Part shown: positions 4,344-56,184 of the stretch, piece after piece
Position numbering within the stretch: position 1 is the first letter of the stretch
Layout of the letters: each line of letters starts with the position of its first letter
Source: an uncultured Acidobacteriota bacterium
Lineage (GTDB): Bacteria > Acidobacteriota > Thermoanaerobaculia > Gp7-AA8
Assembly (NCBI GenBank): GCA_963741955.1
Contig: CAVUKB010000010.1
Location: forward strand, 384,001 to 448,000
Direction of reading: 5' to 3'
Length of the DNA stretch: 64,000 nucleotides
Notes under the pieces: generated by a model
Databases searched by the model: none
The model's input: only the letters and a program-made list of their open reading frames with translations
What the model was told of the DNA's origin: nothing
Translations under genes and position numbers: made by a program

Positions 4344-4396
4344 CGAGCCTCGAGCCTCGCGCCCCGCGCCTCGAGTCTCGCGCCTCCCGCTTCGAG
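4344..4396 (+). repeat. Heptamer tandem array (CGAGCCT-type)
   Basis: cgagcct cgagcct cgcgccc cgcgcct cgagtct cgcgcct. Confidence 0.85.
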
Positions 4397-4481
4397 AGGG
4401 GCAGGTCTGCACGTCGTTGCATCTCCGTGACACTTCGTCGTCGGTTCGGGTGCTATCCTCGGTGGGAGGAGGCTCCCCGAC

Positions 4482-5261
4482 ATGCGTATGCCGTCTGCCG
4501 CTCTGCGTGCAATCGCCGTCAGTTCGTTCGCGATCCTCGTCATCTCCGCCGCGCCGTCCCTCGCACAGGAACGCTGGAGTTGGCCCGAACATCCGAAGAA
4601 CCTCCAGATCCTGAAGGGGATGAGCGGTGAACAGCTCCGCCCCGTCATGGTCGGCTTCACCCGCGCGCTCGGAGTTCGCTGCAACTACTGCCACGTCGGC
4701 GAAGAGGGAAAGCCGTTCACCGAATGGGATTTCCCCTCCGATGCCAAACCGGCCAAGAAGACCGCACGCCAGATGCTCGTGATGCTGCGCATGATCAACG
4801 ATCAGCTGAAGGAGGTCCAACCGAGCGGCGACCAGCGGGTCAACATGTGGTGCGGCACCTGCCACCACGGGAAGCCGCGCCCGATGACTCTCGAAGAAAG
4901 TCTCGATGAAGCGTATCGTCAGGGTGGGGTCAAGGCTGCAGTCGACCGCTACCACGAACTTCGTGACCGTTACTACGGCCGCGGGGCGTACGACTTCGGG
5001 GAGCGCTCACTGAACCAGTTCGGCTACGAGCTGCTCGGTAAGAGTGACCTCGACGGAGGGATCACCATTCTCCGGTTGAACGCCGAAATGTTCCCGCAGT
5101 CGGGGAACGTGTGGGACAGCCTCGCCGAGGCGTATGCGAAGGAGGGGAAACCGGAGCTCGCGGAGATCTACTACCGGAAGTCTCTGGAGCTCGATCCGGA
5201 GAACCGCCACGCACTGGAAGAGCTGCAGAAGATCCGGAGCGCGAATCGACAAGCCCCGTAG
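4482..5261 (+). CDS. Diheme c-type cytochrome (reaction-centre-cytochrome-like domain) fused to TPR
   Basis: Signal peptide, KNLQIL, two heme motifs CNYCH and CGTCH, C-terminal TPR (NVWDSLAEAY...YRKSLELDP). Confidence 0.8.
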   Translation: MRMPSAALRAIAVSSFAILVISAAPSLAQERWSWPEHPKNLQILKGMSGEQLRPVMVGFTRALGVRCNYCHVGEEGKPFTEWDFPSDAKPAKKTARQMLVMLRMINDQLKEVQPSGDQRVNMWCGTCHHGKPRPMTLEESLDEAYRQGGVKAAVDRYHELRDRYYGRGAYDFGERSLNQFGYELLGKSDLDGGITILRLNAEMFPQSGNVWDSLAEAYAKEGKPELAEIYYRKSLELDPENRHALEELQKIRSANRQAP

Positions 5262-5300
5262 GGGGGTGATTCGACAACGGCCCTGGTGCAGTCCCGGGGT
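5252..5300 (-). repeat. REP-like copy overlapping the cytochrome stop codon
   Basis: AGCCCCGTAGGGGGGTGA is a near reverse complement of the 4223 unit and is followed by a CCCTGG...CCCGGGG hairpin. Confidence 0.6.
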
Positions 5301-5461
5301 CCACGCACGTCGACTCTCCTGTTTCCGCCGAAGGGGCGCCGCGGCTCCTGCCGCGGCCGACACGGCGAGAGCCGTGCCGCTCCCAGCCCGGATCGAGCTC
5401 CGCAGCAGAAGTCCCGTGGATAGTCTGCTCCCAGCAGCAGGACTGGCTCTGCCGTGAGACG

Positions 5462-6154
5462 CTAACCGTCGCGACTCATCCGCGTGGTGCCGCCCGGCGT
5501 GCCGATGATCGCATCCGTCGCCTCGGTCGCGAACAGGCCCGTCTCGACCACTCCGGCGATGCGGCGCAGCCGGTCCGCGAGTGACGCGATCTCCGTTCCG
5601 GGCGGGACGGTGACATCGATGATGTGGTGCTGTTCGTCCGTGAGGAACGGCTCGTCCGCATGGAGGCGAAGAACCGGATCGAGCTCCAGCCGGCGGAAGC
5701 GGTCGAGCAGATGCGCCGTCGCGAATCTCACGACCTCCACCGGAAGGCGTCCGCGCCCCAGCCGCTCCACGAGCTTCGTCTCGTCGGCGATCACCAGGAA
5801 TCGTTTCGCCGACTGCTCGACGATCTTTTCCCGCAGCAGCGCCCCGCCACGTCCCTTGATCAGTCGAAGGTGACGGTCGATCTCGTCCGCGCCGTCGACG
5901 GCGAGGTCGATCTCTCCGAGATCTTCCAGCGTGAAGACCTCGATGCCGAATTCGCGCGCGAGCGCTTCGGTGCGGGTCGAGGTGCACGTCGCCCGGATCT
6001 CTGAGATCTCTCCAACTGCCAGCCGGTCGGCGAGCGCACGAAGAAACTCCTCGGCAGTCGAGCCGGTGCCGAGCCCGAGGCGCATTCCGTCACGCACTTC
6101 ATCGACCGCCGTCTCGGCGGCGCGTCTTTTCATCTCTGCCGTATCAGTACCCAC
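5462..6154 (-). CDS. rpiA: Ribose-5-phosphate isomerase A
   Basis: GLGTGST, DGADE, IKGRGGALLREKIV, GVVETGLF motifs. Confidence 0.97.
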   Translation of the reverse strand: MGTDTAEMKRRAAETAVDEVRDGMRLGLGTGSTAEEFLRALADRLAVGEISEIRATCTSTRTEALAREFGIEVFTLEDLGEIDLAVDGADEIDRHLRLIKGRGGALLREKIVEQSAKRFLVIADETKLVERLGRGRLPVEVVRFATAHLLDRFRRLELDPVLRLHADEPFLTDEQHHIIDVTVPPGTEIASLADRLRRIAGVVETGLFATEATDAIIGTPGGTTRMSRDG

Positions 6155-9384: not shown

Positions 9385-12029
9385 GGACGATGCGTGCTCA
9401 CATTCTGTCGCAACTGGCCGAGCCGCGCGACCAGTTCGACCCGTCGGGTGCGAGACTGCTCGACGACCTGGGCTGGAGCCTTCTCCAGAAATCCCGGATT
9501 CGCGAGGCGACCGTCGATGTTCGCGATCTCCCGCTCCACCTGTTCGATCTCTTTTCCGATCTTCGCGATCTGCTCCGGCGAGAGCGTCTGCTCGGGGAGC
9601 TCGATTCCGAGCTCGACGGTTCCGATCACGTCGCGATGCGCGTCGGCCGGAACAGGCTCGTTGATCCGCACCTCCGAAGCGCGGGCGAGATCGACCAGCA
9701 GATAAGAGTGGGCCTGGAAGAATGCGATGTCCTCTTCGCCCTCCACGCGGAGAAAGATGCGGAAGCGATCTCCCGGCTGATACCCGCGTTCGGCGCGAAC
9801 GTTACGGATCGTCGTCACCATCCCCTGGATGATCGCCACGCGACGTTCGGCTTCCGGGTCGTCGAGCATCTCGTCGGCGATCGGGTAGGGCGCCACCATC
9901 ACCGACGGTTCCACCCCACCGAGCTTCTGCCAGATCTCCTCGGAGACGAACGGCATGAACGGATGCAGCAGACGGAGCGAACGATCGAGCACTTCGAGAA
10001 GCACCCGCTTCGCATTCTTCTGATCTTTCGGATTCCCCTCTTTACCCAGCAGGACCGGCTTGGCCATCTCGATGTACCAGTCACAGAACTCGTGCCAGAC
10101 GAACTGGTAGATCTGGTTCGCGGCTTCGTCGAACCGGAACGCGGAGAGGGCCTTGTTCACCGAATCGGTGGTGTGGTTCGCGCGCGAGAGAATCCACCGC
10201 TCGACGGGGGCCAGCTCGTCGCCGTCGATCGGGCTGGCCGACGAGAGATCTCCTTCGATGTGCATCAGAGCGAAGCGCGACGCGTTCCAGATCTTCGTGC
10301 CGAACGCGGAGTAGCCGGCCATCCGGTTCTTCGCGAGGGGGATGTCGCGCCCCGTCGCGAGAATGGCGAGAGTGAAGCGGACCGCATCGGCGCCGAATTC
10401 CTCGATCACTTCCAGCGGATCGATGACGTTTCCCTTCGACTTGGACATCTTCTGGCCCTCTTCGTCTCGGACCAGACCATTGAGGAACACCTGGGTGAAG
10501 GGGACCTTCCCGGTGAAGCGGAGGCCCATCATGATCATCCGCGCCACCCAGAAAAAGAGGATGTCGAATCCGGTGATCAGCGTGTCGGTCGGGTAGAACG
10601 TGCGGAGATCGCTGGTCTCGTCGGGCCATCCCATGGTCGAGAACGGCCAGAGCGCGGACGAGAACCAGGTATCGAGAACGTCCGTTTCCTGGCGGAGCTC
10701 CTGATTTCCGCAGTGCGCGCATTTCTCCGGAGTCTCTTCGCTGACGATGACCTCTCCGCAGGCGCAGTACCATGCGGGGATGCGGTGTCCCCACCAGAGC
10801 TGGCGCGAGATGCACCAGTCGTGGATGTTCTCCATCCAGTTGAAGTAAGTGGCTTCCCACGATTGAGGAGTGATGGAAATGGTTCCGTTCCGAACCGCGT
10901 CGAGCGCCGGTTTCGCCAGCGGATCGATGCGGACGAACCACTGACGCGAGACCATCGGCTCGATGGCGGTGTCGCATTTCGCGCAGTAACCGACGGAATG
11001 CTCGTAGGGCTTGATCTCGCCGAGAAGCCCCTCCTCACGGAGATCGTCGATCACTTTTTTCCGCGCCTCGAAGCGGTCGAGGTGCGCATAGCCGGAGCCC
11101 GCTTCCTCGGTCATCTTTCCCGTCTCGTCGATCACCTGGATCTGAGCGAGGTCGTGGCGCTTTCCCGCTTCGTAATCGTTCTTGTCGTGAGCGGGCGTGA
11201 CCTTCACTACGCCGGTCCCGAAGGCGGGATCCACGAGGATGCCGTCCGCGACGATGGGGATGGTCCGGCTGGTCAGGGGAAGCCGGACCGTGCCGCCGAT
11301 CAGGTCGCGATAGCGGTCGTCGTCCGGATGGACCGCGACGGCGGTATCGCCGAGCATCGTCTCGGGACGGGTGGTGGCGACGGTGAGCCGGCGGTCGGTG
11401 CCGGTGACGGGATAATCGATGTGGTAGAGGCGGCCCTGGGTCTCGCGGTACTCGACTTCGATATCCGAGATCGCGGTCTGACAGCGAGGGCACCAGTTCA
11501 CCATGGCGAGGTCACGGTAGATCAGGCCGTCCTCGTAGAGGCGGACGAAGACGTGTCGCACCGCTCGGGAGAGTCCTTCGTCGAGCGTGAAGCGGGTGCG
11601 GCTCCAGTCGCAGGAGGAGCCGAGGCGCTTGAGCTGATCGATGATCTGATTGCCGTGCTCGTCCTTCCACTGCCAGACCCGCTCGATGAACTTCTCGCGA
11701 CCGATCTCGCGCCGGGAGATTCCCTGCTTCGCCAGATCGCGCTCCACCACCATCTGTGTCGCGATGCCGGCGTGGTCCGTGCCGGGGAGCCAGAGCGTGT
11801 TGAAGCCGCTCATCCGTTTCCAGCGAACGATGATGTCCTGGAGCGTGTTGACCAGCGCGTGCCCGATGTGCAGCCGCCCGGTGACGTTCGGGGGAGGGAT
11901 GACGATGGAGAACTTCGGCCGCTCCGGGTCGTCGACCGGCGTGAAGAACCCTTCTTCCTCCCAGAATCGGTACCACTTCTGTTCGAGCTCGGCTGGTTCG
12001 TATCGTTTTGGCAGTTCCGTCTTGTGCAT
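9381..12029 (-). CDS. valS: Valine--tRNA ligase
   Basis: PPPNVTGRLHIGH, DWCISRQLWWGH, KMSKS, C-terminal coiled coil. Start is 12029 or 12041. Confidence 0.99.
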   Translation of the reverse strand: MHKTELPKRYEPAELEQKWYRFWEEEGFFTPVDDPERPKFSIVIPPPNVTGRLHIGHALVNTLQDIIVRWKRMSGFNTLWLPGTDHAGIATQMVVERDLAKQGISRREIGREKFIERVWQWKDEHGNQIIDQLKRLGSSCDWSRTRFTLDEGLSRAVRHVFVRLYEDGLIYRDLAMVNWCPRCQTAISDIEVEYRETQGRLYHIDYPVTGTDRRLTVATTRPETMLGDTAVAVHPDDDRYRDLIGGTVRLPLTSRTIPIVADGILVDPAFGTGVVKVTPAHDKNDYEAGKRHDLAQIQVIDETGKMTEEAGSGYAHLDRFEARKKVIDDLREEGLLGEIKPYEHSVGYCAKCDTAIEPMVSRQWFVRIDPLAKPALDAVRNGTISITPQSWEATYFNWMENIHDWCISRQLWWGHRIPAWYCACGEVIVSEETPEKCAHCGNQELRQETDVLDTWFSSALWPFSTMGWPDETSDLRTFYPTDTLITGFDILFFWVARMIMMGLRFTGKVPFTQVFLNGLVRDEEGQKMSKSKGNVIDPLEVIEEFGADAVRFTLAILATGRDIPLAKNRMAGYSAFGTKIWNASRFALMHIEGDLSSASPIDGDELAPVERWILSRANHTTDSVNKALSAFRFDEAANQIYQFVWHEFCDWYIEMAKPVLLGKEGNPKDQKNAKRVLLEVLDRSLRLLHPFMPFVSEEIWQKLGGVEPSVMVAPYPIADEMLDDPEAERRVAIIQGMVTTIRNVRAERGYQPGDRFRIFLRVEGEEDIAFFQAHSYLLVDLARASEVRINEPVPADAHRDVIGTVELGIELPEQTLSPEQIAKIGKEIEQVEREIANIDGRLANPGFLEKAPAQVVEQSRTRRVELVARLGQLRQNVSTHRP

Positions 12030-12165: not shown

Positions 12166-13266
12166 ATGGCTGAAAACGACGATTCGATGTTGATGCTCGG
12201 GATCGAGAGCTCGTGCGACGAGACTTCGGTCGCTCTGCTGAATGGCGAGGGGGAAGTGCGGGCGAATCTGATTGCCTCGCAGATCGAGCGGCACCAGCCG
12301 TTCGGAGGCGTGGTTCCGGAGATTGCGTCGCGAGAGCATCTCGACAACCTCATGCCGCTGATGCGGAAGGCTCTCGCCGACAGCGGGAAGGCGCTCGGGG
12401 ACGTCACCGCCGTGTCCGTGACCTGCGGCCCCGGCCTGATCGGAGCGCTTCTGGTCGGCGTGGCGGCCGCGCAGGGACTCGCGTACGGGCTCGGCATTCC
12501 GCTCATTCCGGTGAATCATCTCGAGGGGCACGTCTTTTCGCCGTTCCTCCGCAGCGACGGATCGGCGCGTGCGCTTCCGCCACGGTTCTTCAGCCTCGTC
12601 GTTTCGGGGGGACACTCGTCGGTGTACGAGGTGACCGCGGACGGTGAGCAGAGATCGATCCGGATGCTGAACCGGACTCGAGACGATGCTGCCGGTGAGG
12701 TGTTCGACAAGGTGGGGAAGTTCGTCGGGCTCCCGTATCCCGGTGGCCCTCACATCGAGAAAACCGCGAAGGAAGGGGATCCGGAGCGCTTCCGCTTTCC
12801 CCTGGCCCGGTTCAAGGATGATTCGGTCGATTTCTCGTTTTCGGGATTGAAGTCGAATGCGATCCGGCTCGCGAGACAGCTCGGCCTCGAAGCGGCCGCT
12901 GGCGGCGACGGGAGCGGCTCGCAGGTTCTGGCGGACTTCTGCGCGTCGTTCCAGAAGGCGATCGGGGATCAGATCCTCGACCGGCTGGGAAAGCTGTGGG
13001 ATTCGCGGGAGCGAGCATCGAGGCCTGCACTTCTCGCGCTCGCCGGAGGCGTCGCGGCGAATGGAGATCTGAGAGAGAGGATCGGCAGCTGGTGCTCGGA
13101 GCGTGGCGTCGAGGCGCTTCTTCCGGAGCGGAGGTATTGCACCGACAACGCGGCGATGATCGCGTTCGCGGGGCTGCAGAGGTGGCGGTCAGGCGAGGTC
13201 AGCGGCGACCCGCGGCGGGTGCCCGCGTATTCGAGAATGCCGCTCGGTGCGAGCGATGAGCGATGA
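12166..13266 (+). CDS. tsaD: tRNA threonylcarbamoyladenosine transferase TsaD
   Basis: LGIESSCDET, GGVVPEIASREH, NHLEGH, VSGGH, DDAAGE, FSFSGLK, CTDNAAMI. Confidence 0.97.
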   Translation: MAENDDSMLMLGIESSCDETSVALLNGEGEVRANLIASQIERHQPFGGVVPEIASREHLDNLMPLMRKALADSGKALGDVTAVSVTCGPGLIGALLVGVAAAQGLAYGLGIPLIPVNHLEGHVFSPFLRSDGSARALPPRFFSLVVSGGHSSVYEVTADGEQRSIRMLNRTRDDAAGEVFDKVGKFVGLPYPGGPHIEKTAKEGDPERFRFPLARFKDDSVDFSFSGLKSNAIRLARQLGLEAAAGGDGSGSQVLADFCASFQKAIGDQILDRLGKLWDSRERASRPALLALAGGVAANGDLRERIGSWCSERGVEALLPERRYCTDNAAMIAFAGLQRWRSGEVSGDPRRVPAYSRMPLGASDER

Positions 13267-13303
13267 GCGGCGAGCGGCGAGCGATGAGCGGCGAGCGGCG
13301 AGA
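13251..13303 (+). repeat. Heptamer tandem array (GAGCGAT/GAGCGGC) overlapping the tsaD stop
   Basis: About 7 units. The array encodes the last tsaD codons and the TGA. Confidence 0.9.
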
Positions 13304-13359
13304 AACCTCCGGACGAGTCGATTCGTCCTATTGATAGCCGCGGGAATCGTACCTCCTAC

Positions 13360-13538
13360 ACGACACCCCGTATGGGCAACGGGGTGAACCTTCCTGGTGG
13401 CAACAGCAGTCGAGGCCGGATTCCGAAACGGTAACCGGCCCCGCTGCTGCAGAGATGGATGGGTGGGGCGGCTCTGCAGCGGCTGAAGTCAACACGATCA
13501 CGAAGAAAGCGCCGGTGGGCTGCCGGCGCTTTCTTTTT
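13360..13538 (+). ncRNA. Candidate structured non-coding RNA or riboswitch-like element (family not recognised)
   Basis: Consecutive stems CACCCCGT/ACGGGGTG, CTGGTG-gcaa-CAGCAG, GGCCGG/CCGGCC, GCTGCAGAG/CTCTGCAGC, ending in a strong intrinsic terminator. No convincing ORF. Confidence 0.45.
13503..13538 (+). terminator. Intrinsic terminator
   Basis: AAGAAAGCGCCGG-7nt-CCGGCGCTTTCTT followed by TTT. Confidence 0.85.
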
Positions 13539-13868
13539 CGAGGCTCGGGGCTCGAGGTACGAGGCTCGACGGATCTCCTGCCCTCTCACCGTGGACTCTT
13601 CCCCGGAACCGAAACGGGAGCCGCCTGCTCTCTTTGCGGCGCCGCCCTTCGGGCTCGCGAAATCTGCGGCGTCGCCCCCCCGGCTCACGCCGGGGGCTTC
13701 ACGAGGTACCGCCCTTCGGGCTTCCTCGCTTCTCGTCTCTCGTCTTTCGTCCCGAGCCCCGAGTCCCGAGCCCCGAGCCCCGAGTCCCGAGCCCCGAGCC
13801 CCAAGCCCCGAGCCTCGAGCCTCGAGTCCCGAGCCTCGAGCCCCGCCTCTCTCGCCTCTCGCCTCTCG
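13539..13868. repeat. Composite repeat: inverted heptamer arrays enclosing REP-like hairpins
   Basis: CGAGGCT x4 (13539-13569); CCGCCCTTCGGGCT x2 and CCCCCGGC..GCCGGGGG (13640-13722); CGTCTCT/CGAGCCC/CGCCTCT array of about 20 units (13725-13868). Confidence 0.85.
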
Positions 13869-13884
13869 TGCCACAATACCGGCC

Positions 13885-14790
13885 ATGAAGATCGTGATCT
13901 CCGGCGGAAGCGGATTGATCGGCGAAGCAGTGACGACCGCGCTCGCCCGCCGAGGAGAGGTCGGCGTGCTCACCCGCAACCCGGCGAAGGTCTCGACCGG
14001 ACGTCCGATCCGGTGGGATCCTGCGGAAACCCGCGGATCGTGGCAGGACGAGGTGGCGGCGGCGGACGTGGTGGTCAACCTCGCGGGGGAGAATGCCGGT
14101 GAAGGGCGCTGGAGCGAGGCGAAGAAACGGCGCCTGGTCGGGAGCCGGATCGAGGCCACCCGGAGCCTGGTCGACGCGATGCGGCGCTCGGAGCGGAGCG
14201 AGCGGTTGCTGATCAGTGCCTCGGCGGTCGGGATCTACGGCAATCGCGGCGATGAGATTCTCGAGGATGATGCGCCGAGCGGTTCGGGCCTTCTCGCGGA
14301 TCTCGGCCGTGCATGGGAAGCGGAGGCGAGACAGGCCGAGAGCGTGTCGAGAGTGGTGATCTTCCGGTTTGGCCTGGTGCTCTCGAGTCGTGGAGGTGCC
14401 CTCGCCCGGATGCTTCCCATTTTCCGGGCCGGCGTCGGAGGACGCCTCGGGGACGGAACGCAGTGGTGGCCGTGGATCGATCTCGACGACGTGGCGATGC
14501 TCTGCGACCGGGTGATCGACCGGCGCGATGCGGCGGGGACGTACAACGCGGTCGCACCGGAACCGGTGCGGAACGCGGAGTTCACGCGCGAGCTCGCGAG
14601 AGCGATGCACCGTCCGGCGATCCTTCCTGCGCCGGCGTTCGCGTTGCGGCTCGCGTTCGGTCAGATGGCGGACGAGATGATTCTGGCCAGCCAGAGGGCC
14701 GTTCCGCGCCGGCTCCTCGCCGAAGGATTCGAGCTCGCGCAGCCCGAGCTCGGCGAGGCGCTGCGATGGGAGCTCGCGCGGACGCGATGA
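13885..14790 (+). CDS. TIGR01777 family NAD(P)-dependent oxidoreductase (YfcH-like)
   Basis: MKIVISGGSGLIG Rossmann motif, VNLAGE, SASAVGIYG, GGRLGDGTQWWPWI, SQRAVP. Confidence 0.92.
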   Translation: MKIVISGGSGLIGEAVTTALARRGEVGVLTRNPAKVSTGRPIRWDPAETRGSWQDEVAAADVVVNLAGENAGEGRWSEAKKRRLVGSRIEATRSLVDAMRRSERSERLLISASAVGIYGNRGDEILEDDAPSGSGLLADLGRAWEAEARQAESVSRVVIFRFGLVLSSRGGALARMLPIFRAGVGGRLGDGTQWWPWIDLDDVAMLCDRVIDRRDAAGTYNAVAPEPVRNAEFTRELARAMHRPAILPAPAFALRLAFGQMADEMILASQRAVPRRLLAEGFELAQPELGEALRWELARTR

Positions 14791-29625: not shown

Positions 29626-29646
29626 CGCCGAGATGATAGCAGGGAG

Positions 29647-42687: not shown

Positions 42688-42702
42688 CGGGGGCATTGTA
42701 CA

Positions 42703-42775
42703 GCGAGAGGCGAGGGGCGAGAGGCGAGAGGCGAGAGGCGAGGGTTATAGGGGTCGGGGGTCAGGGATCAGGGGC
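42703..42775 (+). repeat. Heptamer array (GCGAGAG, then GGGTCAG-like units)
   Basis: gcgagag gcgaggg gcgagag gcgagag gcgagag... Confidence 0.88.
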
Positions 42776-45880: not shown

Positions 45881-46864
45881 GTGAAGAACTGGATCACACT
45901 CACCCGGCCGTTCACCCTTCTCCCGCCGCTCCTGGGGATCATCTCCGGCGCGATCTGCGCGTGGGGCTCGGTCCACAACCCCGATCCGACACGTGCGGTG
46001 ACCGCCACGGTGGTGCTCACCATCGTGCTCGGCTCACTCTGCGCGTCGTTCCTCAACGCCGCGTCGAACGTGCTGAATCAGATCTACGACCTGGAGATCG
46101 ATCGGGTGAACAAGCCGCGCCGCCCCCTGGTCACCGCCGCAGTGGGGATGCGCGAGGCTTGGATCGGGACGGTGATCCTCTACCTCCTCGCCATCATTCC
46201 GACCTGGCTGGTGGTCGTCTTTCCTTACAACGGCGTGGCGGCGAAATTCTTCGCTCCACTCCCGTATCACGAATGCCTCTTCATCTACATCGCGGGGATG
46301 ATCTTCACGTTCGTCTACTCGGCTCCCGCATTCGGGAGGACCAAGCGCTTCGGCATCTGGGCGAACCTGACCATCGCCATCCCCCGCGGAACGCTGCTCA
46401 AGGTGGCCGGCTGGTCGATGGTCGCCCACGTCTTCTCCACCGAGCCCTGGTTCATCGGAGGGATTTTCGGCCTGTTTCTCCTCGGCGCCGCCTCGACCAA
46501 GGACTACTCCGACATCGAAGGCGACCGCCGCGGAGGCTGTCAGACCCTCCCGATCCGCTACGGCGTCCGCGCGTCCGCCTGGATGATCGCTCCCTTCTTC
46601 GTCTTTCCCTGGATCCTGATGCCGATCGGCGCGCACGTCACCGATCCGTTTCTCCACGGCGCGGTGCACCCGATCCTCACCGGCAACGCGACGCTGCTCA
46701 CCGCGGTCGGAATCATCCTCGTGCTGTGGGGGAGCTACACCGCCTGGCTTTTGTTGCGCAATCCCGACGAGCTCACCTCGACCGAGAACCATCCATCGTG
46801 GCGTCACATGTACCTGATGATGATGTTCGCGCAGGTCGGCTTCGCGGTGTCGTATCTTTTTTAG
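45881..46864 (+). CDS. UbiA-family prenyltransferase
   Basis: LTRPFT, NQIYDLEIDRVNKPRRPL, YSAP, KDYSDIEGD; multiple TMs. Confidence 0.9.
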   Translation: MKNWITLTRPFTLLPPLLGIISGAICAWGSVHNPDPTRAVTATVVLTIVLGSLCASFLNAASNVLNQIYDLEIDRVNKPRRPLVTAAVGMREAWIGTVILYLLAIIPTWLVVVFPYNGVAAKFFAPLPYHECLFIYIAGMIFTFVYSAPAFGRTKRFGIWANLTIAIPRGTLLKVAGWSMVAHVFSTEPWFIGGIFGLFLLGAASTKDYSDIEGDRRGGCQTLPIRYGVRASAWMIAPFFVFPWILMPIGAHVTDPFLHGAVHPILTGNATLLTAVGIILVLWGSYTAWLLLRNPDELTSTENHPSWRHMYLMMMFAQVGFAVSYLF

Positions 46865-47000
46865 CGGCGAGCGGCGAGCGGCGAGCGGCGAGCGGCGAGC
46901 GGCGAGCGGCGAGAGGCGACGTCAGACGTGTCGGACAGGTCTGACGATTTGTCGGACAGTCGGACCTGATTGTTCCCACAATCTCGCTCGCCTCTCGCCT
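46863..47000. repeat. Inverted heptamer arrays enclosing a 9-bp period repeat
   Basis: AGCGGCG x7 starting at the ubiA stop; GTCAGACGT GTCGGACAG GTCTGACGA..GTCGGACAG (46921-46968); CTCGCTCGCCTCTCGCCT (46983-47000). Confidence 0.85.
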
Positions 47001-47099
47001 GAGACTTTAGTCATTTCTCGCCTTCTCCTGTTCCGGTACAACGGATCCCGACTTCAGGCGCGGCCCTCATCGCGCACACGAAAAGGAGATCTCCTTCCC

Positions 47100-49382
47100 A
47101 TGTCTTATCGGAAGTACTGGATCGCACTCTGTCTGGTCGTCGTGGCTTCATTCTCGGTTCTCGGTTACGTCGGCTACCGCGGAATCCAAGCCGCACCACC
47201 CATTCCGAACCAGGTCGTCTCGACGGACGGCACGCTGCTGTTCACCGGAGAGATGATCCGCGACGGACAGAACGTCTGGCAGTCGATCGGCGGGCAGGAA
47301 GTCGGATCGGTGTTCGGCCACGGCGCGTATGTCGCCCCCGACTGGACCGCCGACGCTCTTCACCGTGAAGCCGAGACGATTCTCGACCTCCAGGCCCGAG
47401 CTCTTGGCGCGTCCGGATTCTCTGCGCTCGATCCCGGCCGGCGGGCGGCACTCCATGCCGAGCTCCAGGCCTCGATGCGCCGGAATACCTACGACGCGAA
47501 GAGCGGCCGGATCACCGTCGACCCGCTTCGGGCGAAGGCGTTCGCAGCGCTCGCAGCGCACTACGCAGACGTCTTTTCCAACGGCCGTTCCGAATACGCC
47601 ATCCCTCCCGGCGCGCTCACCGACGTGACGAAGCTGAGACAGATGTCCGCCTTCTTCTGGTGGACCGCCTGGGCCTCCACCACCGACCGTCCGGGGAGCG
47701 ACGTCACCTACACTCAGAACTGGCCGCACGAGCCTCTGGTCGGCAACGCTCCGACCACTTCGGCGATCCTCTGGAGCCTGCTCAGCGTGGTTCTCCTTCT
47801 CGCCGGGATCGGCGCCCTGATCTGGTATTCGGCCGCGCGTGGCGAACAGGCGAAGAAGCTCGAGCCTCCGCACCGCGATCCGATGCTCGGGTTCACTCCC
47901 ACGCCGTCGCAGAAGGCGACGGTCAAGTACTTCGGCGTGGTGGCCGCACTCTGGCTGGTGCAGATCGGCCTCGGCGCGCTGACCGCGCACTACGGCGTCG
48001 AAGGTTGGGGATTCTTCGGAATCCCTCTCGAGAAGATCCTCCCGTACGCCGTGACGCGCACGTGGCACCTGCAACTCGCCATCTTCTGGATCGCTACCGC
48101 CTGGCTCGCGACCGGACTCTTCATCGCTCCCGCAGTCGGCGGGCACGAGCCCAAAGGACAGCGCATCGGGGTGAACATTCTCTTTGTCGCACTGGTGCTC
48201 GTGGTTGCCGGATCGATGGCCGGTGAGTGGTTCGGGATCCAGCAGAAGCTCGGAAATCTCTGGTTCTGGTTCGGCGCACAGGGATACGAGTACGTCGACC
48301 TCGGGCGCTTCTGGCAGATCCTCCTCTTCGCGGGCCTCTTGATCTGGCTGTTCCTGATGTGGCGCGCGATCCGTCCGGCACTTCGCAAACGCGACGAGAG
48401 CCGCACGCTCCTGACGATGTTCCTCGTCTCCAGCATCGCCATCCCGATGTTCTACGCGGCTGGGCTGATGTACGGTCAGCGCTCTGCGATGGTCACCGCC
48501 GAGTACTGGCGCTGGTGGGTGGTCCACCTCTGGGTGGAAGGGTTCTTCGAGGTCTTCGCGACCGTCGTCATCGCGTTCCTCTTCACCCGCTTGAAGCTGA
48601 TCGAGACGGCGTCGGCGACGCGCGTGGTGATGTTCTCGACCTCGATCTTCCTCGCCGGCGGCATCATCGGCACGTTTCATCACCTCTACTTCACCGGAAC
48701 TCACGCTGCAGTACTCGCACTCGGCTCGGTGTTCAGCGCACTGGAGATCGTCCCGCTTGTGATGATCGGTCACGAAGCGTGGGAGAACATCAGGTTCTCG
48801 CAGGGATCGAGCGCGGCGCCATGGCTCCGTGAGTACCGCTGGCCGATCCTCTTCTTCGTCGCGGTGGCGTTCTGGAACCTGGTCGGCGCAGGCGTCTTCG
48901 GATTCCTGATCAACCCACCCGTCGCGCTCTACTACATGCAGGGTCTCAACCTGACGCCGGTCCACGGTCACACTGCGCTTTTCGGCGTGTACGGAATGCT
49001 GGCCCTCGGGCTCACCCTCTTCTCACTCCGCGCACTGACTCCCGGACGTGCATGGAAGGAGCGGAACCTCGCGTTCGCATTCTGGGCGCTCAACGTTGGC
49101 CTTCTTGCGATGGTCGTCCTGAGCCTGTTCCCGATCGGCATCATGCAGGCCGTGGCATCGATCGACACGGGCACCTGGTACGCCCGCTCGGCGGAGTTCC
49201 TCCAGCAGCCAATCATGCAGAAACTCCGCTGGATGCGCGTGGTGGGCGACTCGGTGTTCTCGCTCGGCGCACTCTCGTTCGTCTGGTTCCTCGTCGGTCT
49301 CCTCACCGGATCGTCGTACGAGACGGAGAGCGAGACGAACGAGCTGCCGGACACCATTTATCAAGCGGGTGGCGGCGACTGA
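47100..49382 (+). CDS. norB: Quinol-dependent nitric oxide reductase (qNOR)
   Basis: GHGAYVAPDWTAD, YTQNWP, RWWVVHLWVEGFFEVF, GTFHHLY, PVHGHTALFGVYG. Confidence 0.96.
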   Translation: MSYRKYWIALCLVVVASFSVLGYVGYRGIQAAPPIPNQVVSTDGTLLFTGEMIRDGQNVWQSIGGQEVGSVFGHGAYVAPDWTADALHREAETILDLQARALGASGFSALDPGRRAALHAELQASMRRNTYDAKSGRITVDPLRAKAFAALAAHYADVFSNGRSEYAIPPGALTDVTKLRQMSAFFWWTAWASTTDRPGSDVTYTQNWPHEPLVGNAPTTSAILWSLLSVVLLLAGIGALIWYSAARGEQAKKLEPPHRDPMLGFTPTPSQKATVKYFGVVAALWLVQIGLGALTAHYGVEGWGFFGIPLEKILPYAVTRTWHLQLAIFWIATAWLATGLFIAPAVGGHEPKGQRIGVNILFVALVLVVAGSMAGEWFGIQQKLGNLWFWFGAQGYEYVDLGRFWQILLFAGLLIWLFLMWRAIRPALRKRDESRTLLTMFLVSSIAIPMFYAAGLMYGQRSAMVTAEYWRWWVVHLWVEGFFEVFATVVIAFLFTRLKLIETASATRVVMFSTSIFLAGGIIGTFHHLYFTGTHAAVLALGSVFSALEIVPLVMIGHEAWENIRFSQGSSAAPWLREYRWPILFFVAVAFWNLVGAGVFGFLINPPVALYYMQGLNLTPVHGHTALFGVYGMLALGLTLFSLRALTPGRAWKERNLAFAFWALNVGLLAMVVLSLFPIGIMQAVASIDTGTWYARSAEFLQQPIMQKLRWMRVVGDSVFSLGALSFVWFLVGLLTGSSYETESETNELPDTIYQAGGGD

Positions 49383-49403
49383 TCGTCCGCAGAGTGTGGT
49401 CTT

Positions 49404-49465
49404 GATCGCGGATCAGGGGATCGAGGATTGGGAGAGATCCACAATCCACGGCCCCCGATCCGCGG
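49404..49465. repeat. Short degenerate inverted heptamer pair
   Basis: gatcgcg gatcagg ggatcga ggattgg ... gatccac aatccac ggccccc gatccgc. Confidence 0.6.
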
Positions 49466-49477
49466 TATTCTCTATTT

Positions 49478-50416
49478 ATGCTCAGCCTTGATGCGGAGAT
49501 CGGGCGCCTTCGGGACGAACGACGTCTCGATCCGGATCGTGCAGCGACGCTGATCGCGATCGAGAGGGGCAACCTCTTCTCGCTCCATCTCGAGCTGCGC
49601 CTTCTCCTTTACGCGGCGGTCGTGGCGATCGTCACCGGGGTCGGCGTCGTTCTCTCGAAGAACCTCGACCGGATCGGTCCGGTTACCCTGATCGCGGGAA
49701 TCGGTCTGGTTGCCGCGGCCTGCTACCTCTACGCCTGGATCATGCCGCGGCGGCAGGCTCGGGAGCTTTCATTGCTGGAGAGCTACGTCCTCCTCCTCGG
49801 CGCTCTCCTCGTGAGCACCGACGTCGGGTATGCGGAGAGCCAGTTCCATCTGTTCGGTTCCGACTGGTCGCGGTACCTTCTCCTCCTCGCGATCTTCCAC
49901 GGCGCGACCGCGTATCTCTACCGCTCCAAACTCCTCCTGACGGTGTCGATCACGTCGCTCGCGGCGTGGTTCGGGATCGAGAGAAACATCGACACCCTCT
50001 GGGATTCGACTCCGGAGATGGGTCTCCGTGCGCTCGCCTGTGCCGCCGTGGTCTTCGTGTGGCGGGTGTTGGATCGTCGTTTCAGCCGTGCCGGGTTCAC
50101 CAACGTGTTCGATCATGCCGTCGCGAACCTCGCTCTCCTCGGAGCGCTCTTCCTCGTCTTCGACGACTCGACACGATGGATCGGTCTTCTTCTACTGACG
50201 GCCGGCGCCGGCTTCACGATCTTCGCCGGGTTCCGGAATCGTGAAGAGATCTTCCTGGTCTACGGTGTGGTCTACCTCCTGATCGGCGCGGGGGAGGTCG
50301 TCACCGATCTTCTTCACGAAGAAGTCCTGGAGATGCTCTGGTTCCTCGTGACCACGGCGACGGGCGGGGTGTGGCTCTTCATGATGCATCTGCGGCTGAG
50401 GGAGGGTGGATCATGA
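49478..50416 (+). CDS. DUF2157-like membrane protein
   Basis: LFSLHLELRLLLY motif, about 9 TM segments. Confidence 0.7.
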   Translation: MLSLDAEIGRLRDERRLDPDRAATLIAIERGNLFSLHLELRLLLYAAVVAIVTGVGVVLSKNLDRIGPVTLIAGIGLVAAACYLYAWIMPRRQARELSLLESYVLLLGALLVSTDVGYAESQFHLFGSDWSRYLLLLAIFHGATAYLYRSKLLLTVSITSLAAWFGIERNIDTLWDSTPEMGLRALACAAVVFVWRVLDRRFSRAGFTNVFDHAVANLALLGALFLVFDDSTRWIGLLLLTAGAGFTIFAGFRNREEIFLVYGVVYLLIGAGEVVTDLLHEEVLEMLWFLVTTATGGVWLFMMHLRLREGGS

Positions 50417-52008: not shown

Positions 52009-52161
52009 ATGAAGGCTTCGGTCAAGAATCAGCGTATTTCCGCCCCGATGCGTCAGGTCTCGCTCCAGATCCGCGATTCCCTGGTGACCATGAAGGTGAA
52101 AGTGCCGCTGTCGTTGACGAGGCCGCCTATCGGCTCTTCAGTTTCTGAACGGAGACGCTGA
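52009..52161 (+). CDS. Putative 50-aa small or leader protein
   Basis: GGGAGGG RBS, then MKASVKNQRISAPMRQVSLQIRDSLVTMKVKVPLSLTRPPIGSSVSERRR*. First ORF after the promoter; below the ORF-track size cutoff. Confidence 0.45.
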   Translation: MKASVKNQRISAPMRQVSLQIRDSLVTMKVKVPLSLTRPPIGSSVSERRR

Positions 52162-52450: not shown

Positions 52451-55360
52451 ATGACAGCGATCGAGATCACGGGTTCGGATTCGCGCCCTCGCGGGGAGAA
52501 CTCTCGTCCGCGGGGAAAGAAAGCGGCGAAGGGTGGCGGCATCGAGGTCCCGCGGGTGTTCACGCGCCCCGGGGTGGACGTGTTCGACACCTGCGAATGG
52601 GAGCAGCGGACAGCGGTGATCACCAACGAGCGCGGAGAAGTCGTTTTCGAGCAGCGCGATGTCGAGATGCCGAAGTTCTGGAGCCAGATGGCGACGAACG
52701 TCGTCGTCTCGAAGTACTTCCGGGGGCATCTCGGCACCCCGGAGCGCGAGCGGTCGGTTCGACAGCTGATCGGTCGGGTGGTCCGCTCGATGACCGAATG
52801 GGGGCGCGAAGGCGGCTACTTCGCAACGGAAGCGGACGGTGACTCTTTCCGCGATGAGCTGACGCACATCCTCCTCTACCAGATGGCGTCGTTCAACTCG
52901 CCGGTCTGGTTCAACGTCGGGATCGAAGAAAAGCCGCAGTGCTCGGCGTGTTTCATCAACTCGGTCCGCGACACCATGGATTCGATTCTCTCCCTCGCCA
53001 AGACCGAGGGGATGCTCTTCAAGTACGGATCGGGAACAGGGTCCAACCTGTCGACCATCCGTTCTTCCCGCGAGAGTCTGGCGGGAGGCGGAACGGCCTC
53101 CGGACCGGTCTCCTTCATGAAGGGCTACGACTCGTTCGCCGGCGTGATCAAGTCGGGCGGCAAGACCCGTCGCGCGGCGAAGATGGTGATCCTCAATATC
53201 GACCACCCCGACATCGTCGACTTCATCAACTGCAAGGCACGCGAAGAGAAGAAGGCGTGGGCGCTGATCGAGGCCGGTTTCGAAGGAGCGTTCAACTCCG
53301 TCGGTGGCGCGTACGACTCGGTTCAGTTCCAGAACGCGAACCATTCCGTGCGGGTGACGGACGACTTCATGCGCGCATACGAGAAGGACGGCGACTGGTC
53401 GAGCTGGTCGGTCACCGAGCCGAAACGTCCGATGGACACCTGGAAGGCGCGCTCCCTGATGCGTCAGATCGCCGATTCCGCCTGGATCTGCGGCGACCCG
53501 GGAATGCAGTTCGACACCACAGTGAACGACTGGCACCCCTGCCCGAACACCGCGCGCATCAACGCCTCCAATCCCTGCTCGGAATACATGTTCCTGGACG
53601 ATTCCGCGTGCAATCTCGCCTCGCTGAACCTGATGAAGTTCTACAGCGAGGAGAACGGGTTCGACGTCGAGGCCTACCGGGCAGCGCTCCGCATCGTGAT
53701 CACCGCGCAGGAGATCGCAGTCGACAACGCGAGCTACCCCACCGAAGCGATCGGAAAGAATTCGCATGCGTTCCGTCCGCTCGGGATCGGATACGCGAAC
53801 CTCGGAGCACTTCTGATGGCCCGCGGTCTTCCGTACGACAGTGACGAGGGAAGGGATTACGCAGCCGCGGTCACCGCGATTCTCTCCGGTGAGTCGTATG
53901 CGCAGAGCGCGCGCATCTCAGAGAAGATCGGCCCCTTCGAAGGCTACAAGGTGAACGAAGAGCCGTTCCTCCGGGTGATCGACAAGCACCGGAAGCACGC
54001 CTACACCATCGATCCGCGCAGCGTGCCGGCGGACCTTCTCGCCGCGGCGAGGAACACCTGGGACGAGGCGTACGCACTCGGCGCGAAGCATGGATTCCGC
54101 AATGCCCAGATCTCCGTTCTCGCGCCGACCGGCACCATCGCATTCATGATGGATTGCGACACCACCGGAATCGAGCCCGACATCGCTCTGGTCAAGTACA
54201 AGAAGCTGGTCGGCGGCGGAATGCTCAAGATCGTGAACAACACCGTCCCGACCGCGCTCAAGCGCCTCGGTTACGACCAGAAGCGAATCAATGACATCGT
54301 CCACTACATCGATGAGAACGACACCATCGAGGGTGCGCCGTATCTCGCCGACGAGCATCTGCCGGTCTTCGACTGCGCATTCAAGCCGGCGAACGGAACC
54401 CGTTCCATCCAGTGGATGGGACACCTGAAGATGATGGGCGCGGTTCAGCCTTTCATCTCCGGTGCGATCTCCAAGACCATCAACATGCCGACCGATGCGA
54501 CGGTCGAGGACATCGAGCAGGCGTACTTCGAGGCGTGGCGGCTCGGACTGAAGGCGGTCGCGGTTTACCGTGACGGTTGCAAGCGCTCACAGCCGCTCTC
54601 CACGCGTAAAGAGAAATCCGCCGAAGCCGCCGTCGCCGCGCTCGGCGTCGAGCCGACCGCCGTCCGGCGCAAGCTCCCCGACGAACGCGAATCGATCACC
54701 CACAAATTCTCCGTCGGCGGTCACGAGGGATACATCACCGTCGGAAAATACGAGGACGGAACTCCGGGCGAGATCTTCATCACCATGGCGAAGGAAGGTT
54801 CGACCATCTCCGGCCTGATGGATTCGTTCGCGACCATGACCTCGCTCGCTCTGCAGCATGGCGTTCCGCTACAGCTCCTGGTCGACAAGTTCACCCACAC
54901 CCGGTTCGAGCCCTCGGGCTTCACCAAGAATCCCGAGATCCCGATGGCCAAGTCGATCATGGACTACATCTTCAAGTGGTTGGCCATCAAGTTCCTCTCG
55001 AAGGAGAGCCAGATCAAGGCCGGCGTAATCCAGCGGGATCAGGATCTGCCGGCACCTTCGGAGACTCCGGTGACTGCGGCGGCCGAGACGAGTGCCGTGC
55101 CGACTCCGAAAGCCGACGTGGTCGAGCTCTCGAAGGAAGACCGGAAGTTCGTCGACGAGCTCAAGACCGCTCCGGTGGTCGAGCCTCCGATCGTGGTGAT
55201 GTCTCCGCCGCGCTCGGCCGACCATCCACGGCCGAAGCAGCCATCGACGTTCCTCTATCAACAGGACGCGCCGAGCTGCAGCGACTGCGGCGCGATCATG
55301 GTGCGCAACGGCGCCTGTTACAAGTGCCTGAACTGCGGTTCGACGAGCGGCTGCTCGTAG
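52451..55360 (+). CDS. nrdJ: Vitamin B12-dependent (class II) ribonucleotide reductase with TSCPD domain and C-terminal Zn ribbon
   Basis: FNSPVWFN, PQCSACFI, ASNPCSEY, APTGTI, GLKAVAVYRDG, CSDCG..CYKCLNCGSTSGCS. Confidence 0.97.
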   Translation: MTAIEITGSDSRPRGENSRPRGKKAAKGGGIEVPRVFTRPGVDVFDTCEWEQRTAVITNERGEVVFEQRDVEMPKFWSQMATNVVVSKYFRGHLGTPERERSVRQLIGRVVRSMTEWGREGGYFATEADGDSFRDELTHILLYQMASFNSPVWFNVGIEEKPQCSACFINSVRDTMDSILSLAKTEGMLFKYGSGTGSNLSTIRSSRESLAGGGTASGPVSFMKGYDSFAGVIKSGGKTRRAAKMVILNIDHPDIVDFINCKAREEKKAWALIEAGFEGAFNSVGGAYDSVQFQNANHSVRVTDDFMRAYEKDGDWSSWSVTEPKRPMDTWKARSLMRQIADSAWICGDPGMQFDTTVNDWHPCPNTARINASNPCSEYMFLDDSACNLASLNLMKFYSEENGFDVEAYRAALRIVITAQEIAVDNASYPTEAIGKNSHAFRPLGIGYANLGALLMARGLPYDSDEGRDYAAAVTAILSGESYAQSARISEKIGPFEGYKVNEEPFLRVIDKHRKHAYTIDPRSVPADLLAAARNTWDEAYALGAKHGFRNAQISVLAPTGTIAFMMDCDTTGIEPDIALVKYKKLVGGGMLKIVNNTVPTALKRLGYDQKRINDIVHYIDENDTIEGAPYLADEHLPVFDCAFKPANGTRSIQWMGHLKMMGAVQPFISGAISKTINMPTDATVEDIEQAYFEAWRLGLKAVAVYRDGCKRSQPLSTRKEKSAEAAVAALGVEPTAVRRKLPDERESITHKFSVGGHEGYITVGKYEDGTPGEIFITMAKEGSTISGLMDSFATMTSLALQHGVPLQLLVDKFTHTRFEPSGFTKNPEIPMAKSIMDYIFKWLAIKFLSKESQIKAGVIQRDQDLPAPSETPVTAAAETSAVPTPKADVVELSKEDRKFVDELKTAPVVEPPIVVMSPPRSADHPRPKQPSTFLYQQDAPSCSDCGAIMVRNGACYKCLNCGSTSGCS

Positions 55361-55410: not shown

Positions 55411-55478
55411 ACCCAGACCTGACGAAACACGGGCGTGCCGGGAGAGTGGACACGAACCACGAACGGAGGGATCTCATC

Positions 55479-55697
55479 ATGGAATGCCGCTGCCCCGCCT
55501 GTGACGCCGTTCTTCTCTGGACCGACCCCATCACCGAAACCTCCTGGATCACCTGCCACGCCTGCGATCGCGGATTCCGTCCCTCCGACGCGCGTTGCGT
55601 CGACTGCGCCGCGCCGTTCGGAAAAACCGACTGGAACCGGCACCGCTGCACGATCGAGTCGAATCTCGGCCTGCACCTCGTCGCGCACGGCGCCTGA
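55479..55697 (+). CDS. Small Cys-rich zinc-ribbon protein (72 aa)
   Basis: RBS GGAGGG; CPAC, CHAC, CVDC and HRC motifs. Confidence 0.7.
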   Translation: MECRCPACDAVLLWTDPITETSWITCHACDRGFRPSDARCVDCAAPFGKTDWNRHRCTIESNLGLHLVAHGA

Positions 55698-55721
55698 CCC
55701 CGGTTCGGTTGATCGGAGGGA

Positions 55722-55830
55722 GCCCAGGACCTCCGTCCCGGGCTATTGTCAAACGCCCCTCCGGGGCTGGCCCGATCCCCGATCCTCGATCCGCGAGGAC
55801 CTGGGATGGTTCAAACGCCCCTCCGGGGCC
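55722..55830. repeat. REP/BIME-like element
   Basis: CCCAGGA..CCCGGG hairpin, then TCAAACGCCCCTCCGGGGC at 55749 and 55811; same layout as 4223-4335. Confidence 0.75.
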
Positions 55831-55835
55831 GTCCC

Positions 55836-56184
55836 CGACCGCCGACCGCCGACCCCCGATCCCCGATCCTCGATCCTCGATCCTCGATCCCCGATCCTCG
55901 ATCCTCGATCCTCGATCCCCGATCCTCGATCCTCGATCCTCGATCACCGATCCTCGATCACCGATCCTCGATCCTCGATCCTCGATCCCCGATCCCCGAT
56001 CCTCGATCCTCGATCCCCGATCCTCGATCCTCGATCCTCGATCCTCGATCCTCGATCCCCGATCCTCGATCCTCGATCCCCGATCCTCGATCCCCGATCC
56101 TCGATCCTCGATCCCCGATCCTCGATCCCCGATCCCCGATCCCCGATCCCCGATCCCCGATCCTCGATCCTCGATCCTCGATCA
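55836..56184 (+). repeat. Long heptamer tandem array (CGATCCT/CGATCCC), about 47-50 units
   Basis: Directly visible, period 7. Confidence 0.97.

Follow-up and report, generated by a model that had tools for sequence, protein, structure and literature searches.

Intergenic arrays of tandem heptamers in Thermoanaerobaculia: a new example, in a distant phylum, of a known kind of bacterial repeat

This report deals with intergenic arrays of tandem 7-nt units in a 64-kb stretch of bacterial DNA (the whole stretch is called the window; G+C 63%). The window belongs to the Thermoanaerobaculia (Acidobacteriota), since its class II ribonucleotide reductase (RNR) is 75-80% identical to those of Thermoanaerobaculia assemblies. 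The arrays are a new example, in a distant phylum, of a known kind of heptamer repeat that is still without an explanation. We lean, by a small margin over an even bet, towards viewing them as lineage-specific, dispersed intergenic palindromic elements, similar to REP/REPIN elements, whose arms consist of slippage-prone tandem heptamers. With the same slight preference, we also place them in one class of element with the GGGAATC/GGGGAYT repeats of Xanthomonas and Nostoc and the cyanobacterial STRRs. A dedicated reader or writer protein is neither required nor shown.

The DNA examined consists of the window and 20 short loci from Thermoanaerobaculia relatives (the close clade); a wider set of 60 more distant loci (1,017 kb) gave 81 sequences in all for the pair search. 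Arrays were detected with Tandem Repeats Finder on the window and with a period-7 detector of our own, and coding and intergenic DNA was called by a codon-based gene finder trained on Pfam-verified genes. The same program set the gene starts in the relatives; it placed at least one of them wrongly (L014) and overlooked lexA in the window.

In the window, Tandem Repeats Finder gives 20 rows of period 7 that together amount to about 1.2 kb, and period-7 arrays are present in seven of the approximately 26 window spacers of 30 nt or longer. An earlier reading of the letters, the sequence-only reading, had listed about 12 intergenic period-7 arrays, and the program recovered all of the large ones (4344, 13249, 13538, 13731-13868, 29646-29864, 42703-42774, 43073-43263, 46863-46919 and 55771-56183). 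Both Tandem Repeats Finder and our detector missed three further sites, 29951, 46983 and 49404/49433, which are degenerate or short but evident by eye. For the window and the 20 close loci together (327 kb coding, 76 kb intergenic), 62 period-7 arrays are intergenic and five are coding, and the intergenic arrays of periods 5, 6, 8 and 9 number only 1, 2, 9 and 1, respectively. Thus, the enrichment of period 7 over other periods, which the sequence-only reading had proposed as a test, was found. The close clade has 67 arrays per 404 kb, as compared to 12 per 1,017 kb in the 60 more distant loci, and the density spans 0 to 8.4 per 10 kb between species.

The arrays tend to abut genes, and 31 of 63 are within 25 nt of an open reading frame (ORF) end. 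Three of those in the window reach stop codons, as had been claimed: those of tsaD (13264-13266), ubiA (46862-46864) and nadB (43262-43264, minus strand). The epimerase stop (14788-14790) lies within a two-unit remnant, ATGAGCG AGGGGCG (14786-14800), of the same unit as the array over the tsaD stop. The possibility that the arrays are coding repeats was rejected; ORFs crossing them have no Pfam match and seven is not divisible by three. Scans around the arrays for sigma-70 promoter and intrinsic terminator consensus sequences gave 0-1 sites, no more than expected from shuffled sequence.

The sequence-only reading had described a strict polarity of the arrays relative to genes. The rule that we tested is that the purine-rich form lies beside the left-hand ORF or the pyrimidine-rich form beside the right-hand ORF. 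In the window the polarity is present in 16 of the 17 detected arrays, and the sole exception is a short array at 55771, in the left half of its spacer and directly after a copy of the Acido-Lenti-1 RNA motif. Shorter arrays outside this set of 17 (13538, 29951, 46983 and 49404/49433) follow the rule by eye. The strictness did not hold in the relatives, where the nearest-ORF rule fits 31 of 45 arrays when they are scored by purine excess (31 of 41 with G-C as the measure), and where two families are reversed. Overall, 47 of 62 arrays in the window and relatives have the predicted polarity (p = 6e-5), although the arrays within one window are not independent, as they come from about four inter-related unit families, some of which are shared as composite blocks.

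What the polarity means is simpler than it first appears. On the plus strand, the window spacers have the purine/G-rich array or arrays on the left and the pyrimidine/C-rich array or arrays on the right. This layout is its own reverse complement, and therefore C-rich-before-start and G-rich-after-stop hold for either gene orientation. Consequently, the polarity rule holds no information on gene direction and the sensing of gene orientation is needless; the true asymmetry is that the purine-rich arm is located 5' of the pyrimidine-rich arm. Convergent spacers in relatives have this same arm order (L015 2279/2325, L018 5877/5970, L019 363/442 and L019 11942/12050). Two families always have the pyrimidine arm first, namely AGCTCTT...CTAAGAG (L010 twice, L014, and L015 twice) and GGTTGTC...GACAACC (L002 and L013). 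The existence of families of opposite order implies that arm order is a property of each family.

Inverted pairs around a core, another element of the sequence-only reading, occur in both the window and the relatives. The pair search in the 81 sequences gave 23 rows: 15 are purine-first (with window array 42703 entering twice), six are pyrimidine-first and two are neutral; one extra pyrimidine-first pair, at L010 2680-2775, was seen by eye. By our own grouping, approximately 12 unit families are purine-first versus two that are pyrimidine-first.

The paired arrays of the relatives make near-perfect hairpins, with minimum free energy (MFE) z-scores of -11.5 (L019), -8.4 (L018), -7.9 (L007) and -6.5 (L015); these and the other z-scores given here are rough values, each resting on 15 mononucleotide shuffles. 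The hairpin at L019 4397-4519 has a 50-bp stem with no mismatches, and its two arms carry the unit variants in mirrored succession. In L018 and L007, the arrays make the outer stem and the inner stem is unique sequence. In the window, only spacer 49383-49477 gives a compact strong hairpin (z = -7.0); the arms in the other array spacers are 80-330 nt apart and 71-94% complementary.

Many palindromes in the clade have no heptamers. Of the 48 stems that reach 22 bp or more, 44 are intergenic, and 26 of these 44 are not heptamer-armed. Some non-heptamer palindromes are multi-copy within one genome, for example in L013 (2852/4127/6841) and L015 (3263/6324). Their 5' arm is the G-rich one in 20 cases versus five, i.e., they are likewise G-first, and therefore the polarity belongs to the palindromes of this clade and not to a heptamer code.

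In some of the relatives, stop codons are directly followed by near-perfect palindromes of great length (stems of 32-62 bp) that contain no repeats, and some of these are multi-copy within one genome (L002 7025-7170; L009 7079-7189; L013 2852-2979, 4127-4388 and 6841-6972; L010 18582-18800). Strand-specific RNA pairing was looked for by comparing G-U counts and MFE of both strands in 18 hairpins, and there was no consistent asymmetry. A terminator role was considered and rejected, as the array hairpins mostly have no T tails; only L015 2279-2348 has one. Canonical terminators with a GC stem and a T-run exist elsewhere in the window at 18185-18215, 21447-21475 and 13505-13538.

The units themselves had been said to share a CG-NNN-CY frame. 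This stands for the window, where 110 of 119 CG-delimited 7-nt units fit CGNNNCY, as compared to 13% of all CG-started 7-mers. It does not extend to the relatives, whose units vary widely (among them ACAACCG, AATGCGG, CGGACAG, CTGAAAC, AGGCGAG, GAGGTAC and AATGTCG) and are mostly outside of the frame (AATTGAG, CTAAGAG, GACTCAG, TGAAAAT and others), and therefore the frame is a resemblance among the families of this one genome. The NNN positions are almost invariant inside an array, so they carry little information, unlike a guide or a binding code, and in the window they are complementary between arms (AGG/CCT). The inter-related families mentioned above recur, in part as composite blocks, over seven window spacers. 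Other families are common to different genomes at non-orthologous sites: AGGCGAG (window and L019), an AATTGAG type (L010, L015 and L019) and AGCTCTT (L010, L014, L015 and L016).

The arrays also turn over rapidly enough to differ between orthologous sites. Synteny is kept around nadB-NYN-ubiA-DUF2157-RNR, and the filled and empty states for which the sequence-only reading had suggested a comparison of relatives were both found, at ubiA, nadB and nadB/NYN. For example, the 3' flank of ubiA has arrays in five of 17 genomes, built from five different units, and the 3' flank of nadB has arrays in four of 12. The nadB/NYN junction is filled in two of 12 genomes; its length is 5-23 nt in L010, L018 and the window, but in L019 it contains 236 nt of arrays. 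At a given orthologous spacer, the units are wholly different between species. Within the window, composite blocks made of two families are common to distant spacers: a 53-nt block recurs with 92% identity at 13816-13868 and 43152-43204, and a 37-nt block with 95% identity at 13267-13303 and 46878-46914. Therefore, local slippage alone cannot account for the arrays, as had been suspected from the sequence.

Several known systems resemble these arrays. The cyanobacterial STRRs are tandem heptamers that occur between genes in several families per genome; they are in another lineage and have other units. The REP, BIME and REPIN elements of proteobacteria are dispersed, multi-copy extragenic palindromes, often arranged as inverted doublets near gene ends; their families are species-specific and vary in presence and absence at orthologous sites. 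The arrays of the window and relatives are likewise multi-copy dispersed extragenic palindromes that form hairpins. They differ from REP/REPIN elements in having arms built of tandem heptamers, with a copy number that varies, and loops without conservation; a Pfam scan of 54 ORF translations, all from the window, revealed no RAYT.

The closest match is with the heptamer repeats GGGAATC in Xanthomonas and GGGGA(C/T)T in Nostoc (Rehm et al. 2015; PMC4692102). The parts of that paper on which we draw describe a positional rule that applies 'irrespective of the ORFs orientation', overlap with stop codons and 70-75 inverted pairs per genome; G-quadruplexes (G4) are proposed, the function is left open, and those parts report that no regulatory effect was found. 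As far as these parts go, the likeness includes enrichment in non-coding DNA (62 intergenic versus five coding here), a G-rich strand near or over the stop in sense or near upstream of the start in antisense (16 of 17 here), frequent inverted convergent pairs, and variation in length and sequence between close relatives. One window family (GGGGATC/GAGGATC) even fits GGGNATC. Thus, the polarity rule described in the sequence-only reading was already published for Xanthomonas and Nostoc (PMC4692102). The present arrays differ from what is described there in their phylum and class (Acidobacteriota, Thermoanaerobaculia), in having several unit families per genome, most of them not G4-capable, in having composite arrays with higher-order repeats and up to about 50 units, in the two reversed families of the relatives, and in the association of some arrays with Acido-Lenti-1 hairpins. 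The GGGGATC and CTCGGGG stretches are G4-capable units of the Rehm type; GCGAGAG, AGCGGCG, GCGAGCG and the AT-rich units of the relatives are not.

Other comparisons are less close. MacGregor 2015 (PMC4679880) reported oriented TAACTGA heptamers upstream of start codons in marine Beggiatoaceae. According to the sections of that paper used here, these are also intergenic heptamers in fixed orientation directly upstream of starts, often replacing the Shine-Dalgarno (SD) sequence; unlike the window arrays, they have a single unit in 2-6 copies, with 169 direct versus one indirect. In Haemophilus influenzae, the hmw (ATCTTTC)n tract is a transcribed heptamer simple sequence repeat (SSR) that forms a hairpin in the 5' untranslated region, which is cleaved by RNase III, and expression depends on copy number (PMC12721329, in the part considered). 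Here too pyrimidine-rich heptamers on the sense strand upstream of a gene pair with a purine-rich arm in a long hairpin. Unlike the window arrays, hmw is described as a single contingency locus (a pathogen adhesin), with the repeat arm first, the G-rich arm second and no genome-wide family (PMC12721329).

Finally, arrays of period 5 called VIPR and orphan arrays of period 7/8 followed by their own reverse complement have been described (10.64898/2026.10.21.760802), and the window arrays fit neither definition. VIPR arrays share with ours a short period with fixed and variable positions; another source gives them a period of 5 (GGY/NN), about 10 units and an adjacent Vipr (RAMP) gene (10.64898/2026.04.26.720920). 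Unlike them, the window arrays have a period of 7, units that are not GGY/NN, and a variable trimer that is constant per array and complementary between arms. General Pfam scans of the window ORFs, in which the Vipr protein itself was not used as a query, revealed no effector-like family near the arrays.

According to the favored reading, i.e., REP/REPIN-like palindromes with heptamer arms, the arrays would grow and shrink by replication slippage, and arm complementarity would be kept by intrastrand template switching or fold-back copying, which would explain the mirrored arms. The blocks would spread to new spacers by REP/REPIN-like mobilisation or ectopic recombination. If transcribed, the arms would provide mRNA boundaries with long stems or with C-rich leaders that lack structure, and could alter processing or stability; the hmw 5' hairpin, as described in the part of PMC12721329 referred to above, is an experimentally studied example, which RNase III cleaves.

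Six observations weigh against this interpretation. The excess of purine-first order is left without an explanation. The 7-nt period is explained only by a published conjecture on polymerase slippage (Mrazek 2007, as quoted in the parts of PMC4679880 and PMC4692102 used here). The longest array (55835-56183) has no purine-rich partner arm, and the window array spacers other than 49383-49477 have rough z-scores of -1.4 to -3.3, near those of array-free controls (+1.9 to -2.5). The loops or cores are wholly different between copies of one unit family, unlike typical copies of miniature inverted-repeat transposable elements or REPs. In addition, there is no transposase family among the 54 window ORF translations scanned with Pfam.

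Among the other explanations, selection on translation signals is one that we consider unlikely. The purine strand, with its SD-like GGAG/GAGG, its ATG/GTG and its stops, would be tolerated after stop codons and not before starts, and the pyrimidine strand would be translationally inert and may act as an S1-type unstructured leader. The closeness of arrays to ORF ends noted above would fit, and a similar argument was made for the TAACTGA repeats in the cited part of PMC4679880. An SD-like 4-mer is present in none of the four genes with an array within 20 nt upstream (ruvB, epimerase, FHA and DUF2157) versus 18 of 42 genes overall, a difference that is not significant with so few cases. However, a reversed pyrimidine arm is located 3 nt after the ruvB stop (L010 2680) and a reversed purine arm precedes the start of RNR by about 28 nt (L015 9949-9973). 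Arrays that are more than 90 nt from a start still follow the rule, and the non-heptamer palindromes have the same G-first bias.

That the arrays are G-quadruplex or i-motif regulatory repeats, in which the G-rich strand at ORF ends would fold into G4 in DNA or RNA and so influence transcription or translation (the proposal of Rehm et al.), seems to us quite unlikely. The fit of GGGGATC/GAGGATC to GGGNATC and the positional rule agree with the described parts of PMC4692102, and four of the six canonical G4 motifs in the window are inside arrays (42742-42766, 13757-13781, 13786-13809 and 56134-56158). However, GCGAGAG, AGCGGCG and GCGAGCG lack G3 tracts, and the AT-rich units AATTGAG, TGAAAAT, AATGTCG and CTGAAAC cannot make G4 structures, yet they have the same architecture and order; furthermore, the absence of a regulatory effect reported in the same parts of PMC4692102 counts against the proposal.

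We regard as very unlikely that each spacer acquired its array independently by ordinary local slippage, with no dispersal or function and with an arm order due to chance or a founder effect. Among long SSRs, heptanucleotides are reported to be the most frequent class in many bacteria (Mrazek 2007, quoted in the sections of PMC4679880 and PMC4692102 used here), unit identity differs at orthologous sites and the polarity is weaker in the relatives (31 of 45). The near-identical composite blocks in distant spacers and the mirrored arm variants contradict this explanation, as does the overall polarity; moreover, about four families extend over seven spacers and random 7-mers would almost never coincide.

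Dedicated machinery, in which a protein or ribonucleoprotein reads CG-NNN-CY as a code (compare GGY/NN of VIPR) or a reverse transcriptase or telomerase-like enzyme writes the heptamers onto DNA ends, strikes us as highly improbable. The fit of the frame to 110 of 119 units and the dispersal of the families would agree with it. Against it, the NNN is near-invariant per array and complementary between arms, unlike 'beads-on-a-string' clusters, the frame is missing from most units of the relatives, and the arrays are scattered beside housekeeping genes with no candidate effector among the 54 ORF translations scanned. In addition, many unit families per genome would need many templates. Thus, the protein-binding or RNA-processing code suggested by the sequence-only reading receives no support. 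An assembly artefact is scarcely credible, because, although short-read assemblers can mishandle tandem repeats, nothing was found in its favor here, the arrays contain irregular variant patterns, and comparable arrays in independent public assemblies of related species exclude it, if only indirectly.

Two copies of the Acido-Lenti-1 RNA motif (RF01687; gathering score 37) are present on the plus strand of the window, at 4286-4330 (45.6 bits) and 55723-55768 (43.5 bits), and a partial second copy at 55803-55832 (plus strand) includes the hairpin CGCCCCTCCGGGGC at 55816-55829. Both copies are upstream of the only two genes in the window that Pfam identifies as multihaem c-type cytochromes (the cytochrome c/TPR gene and the MtrC-like decaheme gene), and a C-rich heptamer array lies within 15 nt downstream of each copy. 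A small second hairpin, CGCCC(C)TNCGGG(G)C, has six copies, all on the plus strand (4228-4241, 4316-4329, 13643-13654, 13710-13721, 55754-55767 and 55816-55829), and five of the six have an array within 40 nt after them. When 23 loci were searched (L021, L022 and L024 in addition to the 20 close relatives), there was no Acido-Lenti-1 match, and therefore the motif is no general companion of the arrays.

One distant Thermoanaerobaculaceae locus, L031, has an IS200/IS605-type Y1 transposase gene (15847-16299, minus strand). This gene is flanked on one side by two Acido-Lenti-1-like copies, at 15780-15825 (35.7 bits) and 15583-15613 (partial), and on the other by small hairpins in a tandem array (19 nt x 20) at 16345-16725. 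A group II intron with a reverse transcriptase (13722-15590) directly adjoins the 15583-16725 stretch. The protein scores 69.5 bits with the IS200 model NF033573 (cut-off 55) and 27 bits with RAYT (cut-off 80), and it is the only IS200-type Y1 transposase seen, located beside Acido-Lenti-1 copies. This single case raises the possibility that Acido-Lenti-1 is a REP-like element or the end of a transposon. A bolder idea, to which we would give rather little weight, is that the heptamer-armed palindromes, along with the Acido-Lenti-1 hairpins located before some of them, are non-autonomous mobile elements spread by a dedicated enzyme, either a Y1/HUH transposase or a new activity, whose footprint would set the 7-nt unit and the purine-first order. 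If true, one mechanism would serve for the heptamer repeats of Acidobacteriota, Xanthomonas and cyanobacteria.

In the parts of the literature cited here, detailed earlier descriptions of an ORF-proximal polarity concern only Xanthomonas and Nostoc and attribute it to G-quadruplexes. The same architecture is now seen in a distant phylum with many unit families unable to form G4 structures. These units, together with the G-first non-heptamer palindromes, argue that the polarity is general to intergenic palindromes and not a matter of G4. We found no title or abstract describing heptamer arrays in Acidobacteria, in a search whose coverage of subscription journals is thin. The orthologous filled and empty spacers of Thermoanaerobaculia provide a concrete test system. 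There is a practical side as well: the arrays distort ORF calling, because their C-rich strand has no stop in any frame, and assemblies made from short reads break at them.

The genes that flank the window arrays are mostly housekeeping genes, and the names given to them by the sequence-only reading agree with Pfam. After Uma2 (3643-4200, plus strand), the GC hairpin CGCCCCTACGGGGC (4228-4241) and then a short C-rich heptamer run, CGAGTGT/CGAGTCC/CGAGCCC, occupy 4222-4280 (plus strand). A C-rich array, CGAGCCT/CGCGCCY (4342-4396, plus strand), is 86-91 nt upstream of a cytochrome c/TPR gene (4482-5261, plus strand). The array that overlaps the stop of tsaD (12166-13266, plus strand) and encodes its final codons is at 13249-13302 (minus strand; GCGAGCG/ATGAGCG, 7.7 copies, G-rich on the plus strand). 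The next one, TCGAGGC (13538-13569, minus strand; 4.6 copies, G-rich on the plus strand), directly follows the T-run of a terminator-like hairpin and is the inverted partner of 13751-13845 (31 nt, 90% complementary). This partner is inside a composite C-rich array at 13731-13870 (plus strand; CGTCTCT x3, CGAGCCC x13.6 and CGCCTCT x3), which stops 16 nt before the start of the epimerase/DUF1731 gene (13885-14790, plus strand). The approximately 235 nt between two of these arrays (13303-13540, plus strand) folds well (MFE -109 kcal/mol, z = -4.2) and finishes in a strong terminator hairpin with a T-run. It matches no Rfam family at E<=1 and is a candidate small RNA of no Rfam-matched kind.

A GAGGATC array on the plus strand with higher-order units of 18 and 46 nt (29646-29864, minus strand) is C-rich on the minus strand and is 20 nt upstream of the start of the FHA gene (28678 to about 29625, minus strand). 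Its degenerate C-rich partner, CGATTCA CGATCCA... (29942-29990, plus strand), is 71% complementary to 29821-29862 and about 50 nt upstream of the MCP gene (30043-32139, plus strand). At 42703-42774 (minus strand), GCGAGAG x5.7 and then GGGGTCR x3.4 on the plus strand contain the G4 motif at 42742-42766; this array is C-rich on the minus strand and is located 6 nt upstream of the ruvB start (41662-42696, minus strand). The composite C-rich array at 43073-43263 (plus strand; CGCCTCT, CGAGCCY and CGTCTCT, with a 67-nt higher-order repeat x2) is G-rich on the minus strand, where it overlaps the stop of nadB (43262-44956, minus strand). AGCGGCG x8.1 on the plus strand (46863-46919, minus strand) begins on the stop codon of ubiA (45881-46864, plus strand), and its short C-rich partner CTCGCTCGCCTCTCGCC (46983-47003, plus strand) is 97 nt upstream of qNOR (47100-49382, plus strand).

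The compact hairpin mentioned above, with the G-rich arm GATCGCGGATCAGGGGATCGAGGATTGGG and a C-rich arm (49404-49462, no strand assigned), fills with its arms the spacer between qNOR and DUF2157 (49478-50416, plus strand). Downstream of RNR (52451-55360, plus strand), a short C-rich array, CGATCCY x3.7 (55771-55796, plus strand), directly follows the Acido-Lenti-1 copy. The largest array (55835-56183, plus strand; 349 nt) has about 50 units (CGATCCT 29 and CGATCCC 15) and a minus-strand G4 motif at 56134-56158; it is located 128 nt upstream of an MtrC-like decaheme gene (56312-58486, plus strand).

Some other observations deserve mention. The qNOR gene was found in the window only; all 17 relatives with ubiA in the locus have no qNOR match there, which implies either an insertion here or a loss elsewhere. 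DUF2157 directly follows ubiA in most relatives, and in the window array pairs are present at both qNOR junctions. A 158-nt tandem repeat at 23805-24143 (2.1 copies, 97% identical) separates two paralogous sulfatase-TPR genes. Upstream of RNR is a short stretch, ...CTCCAGATCCGCGATT..CAGGT......GAAGGT.AA..., which is conserved between species in a variable spacer (window 52010-52160, L014 ~1530-1600, L015 ~9400-9500 and L016 ~3850-3960) and could represent a small ORF (in the window, MKASVKNQRISAPMRQVSLQIRD...). Finally, the locus L055 of a distant relative contains a tRNA-Sec gene (72.7 bits) at 14651-14746.

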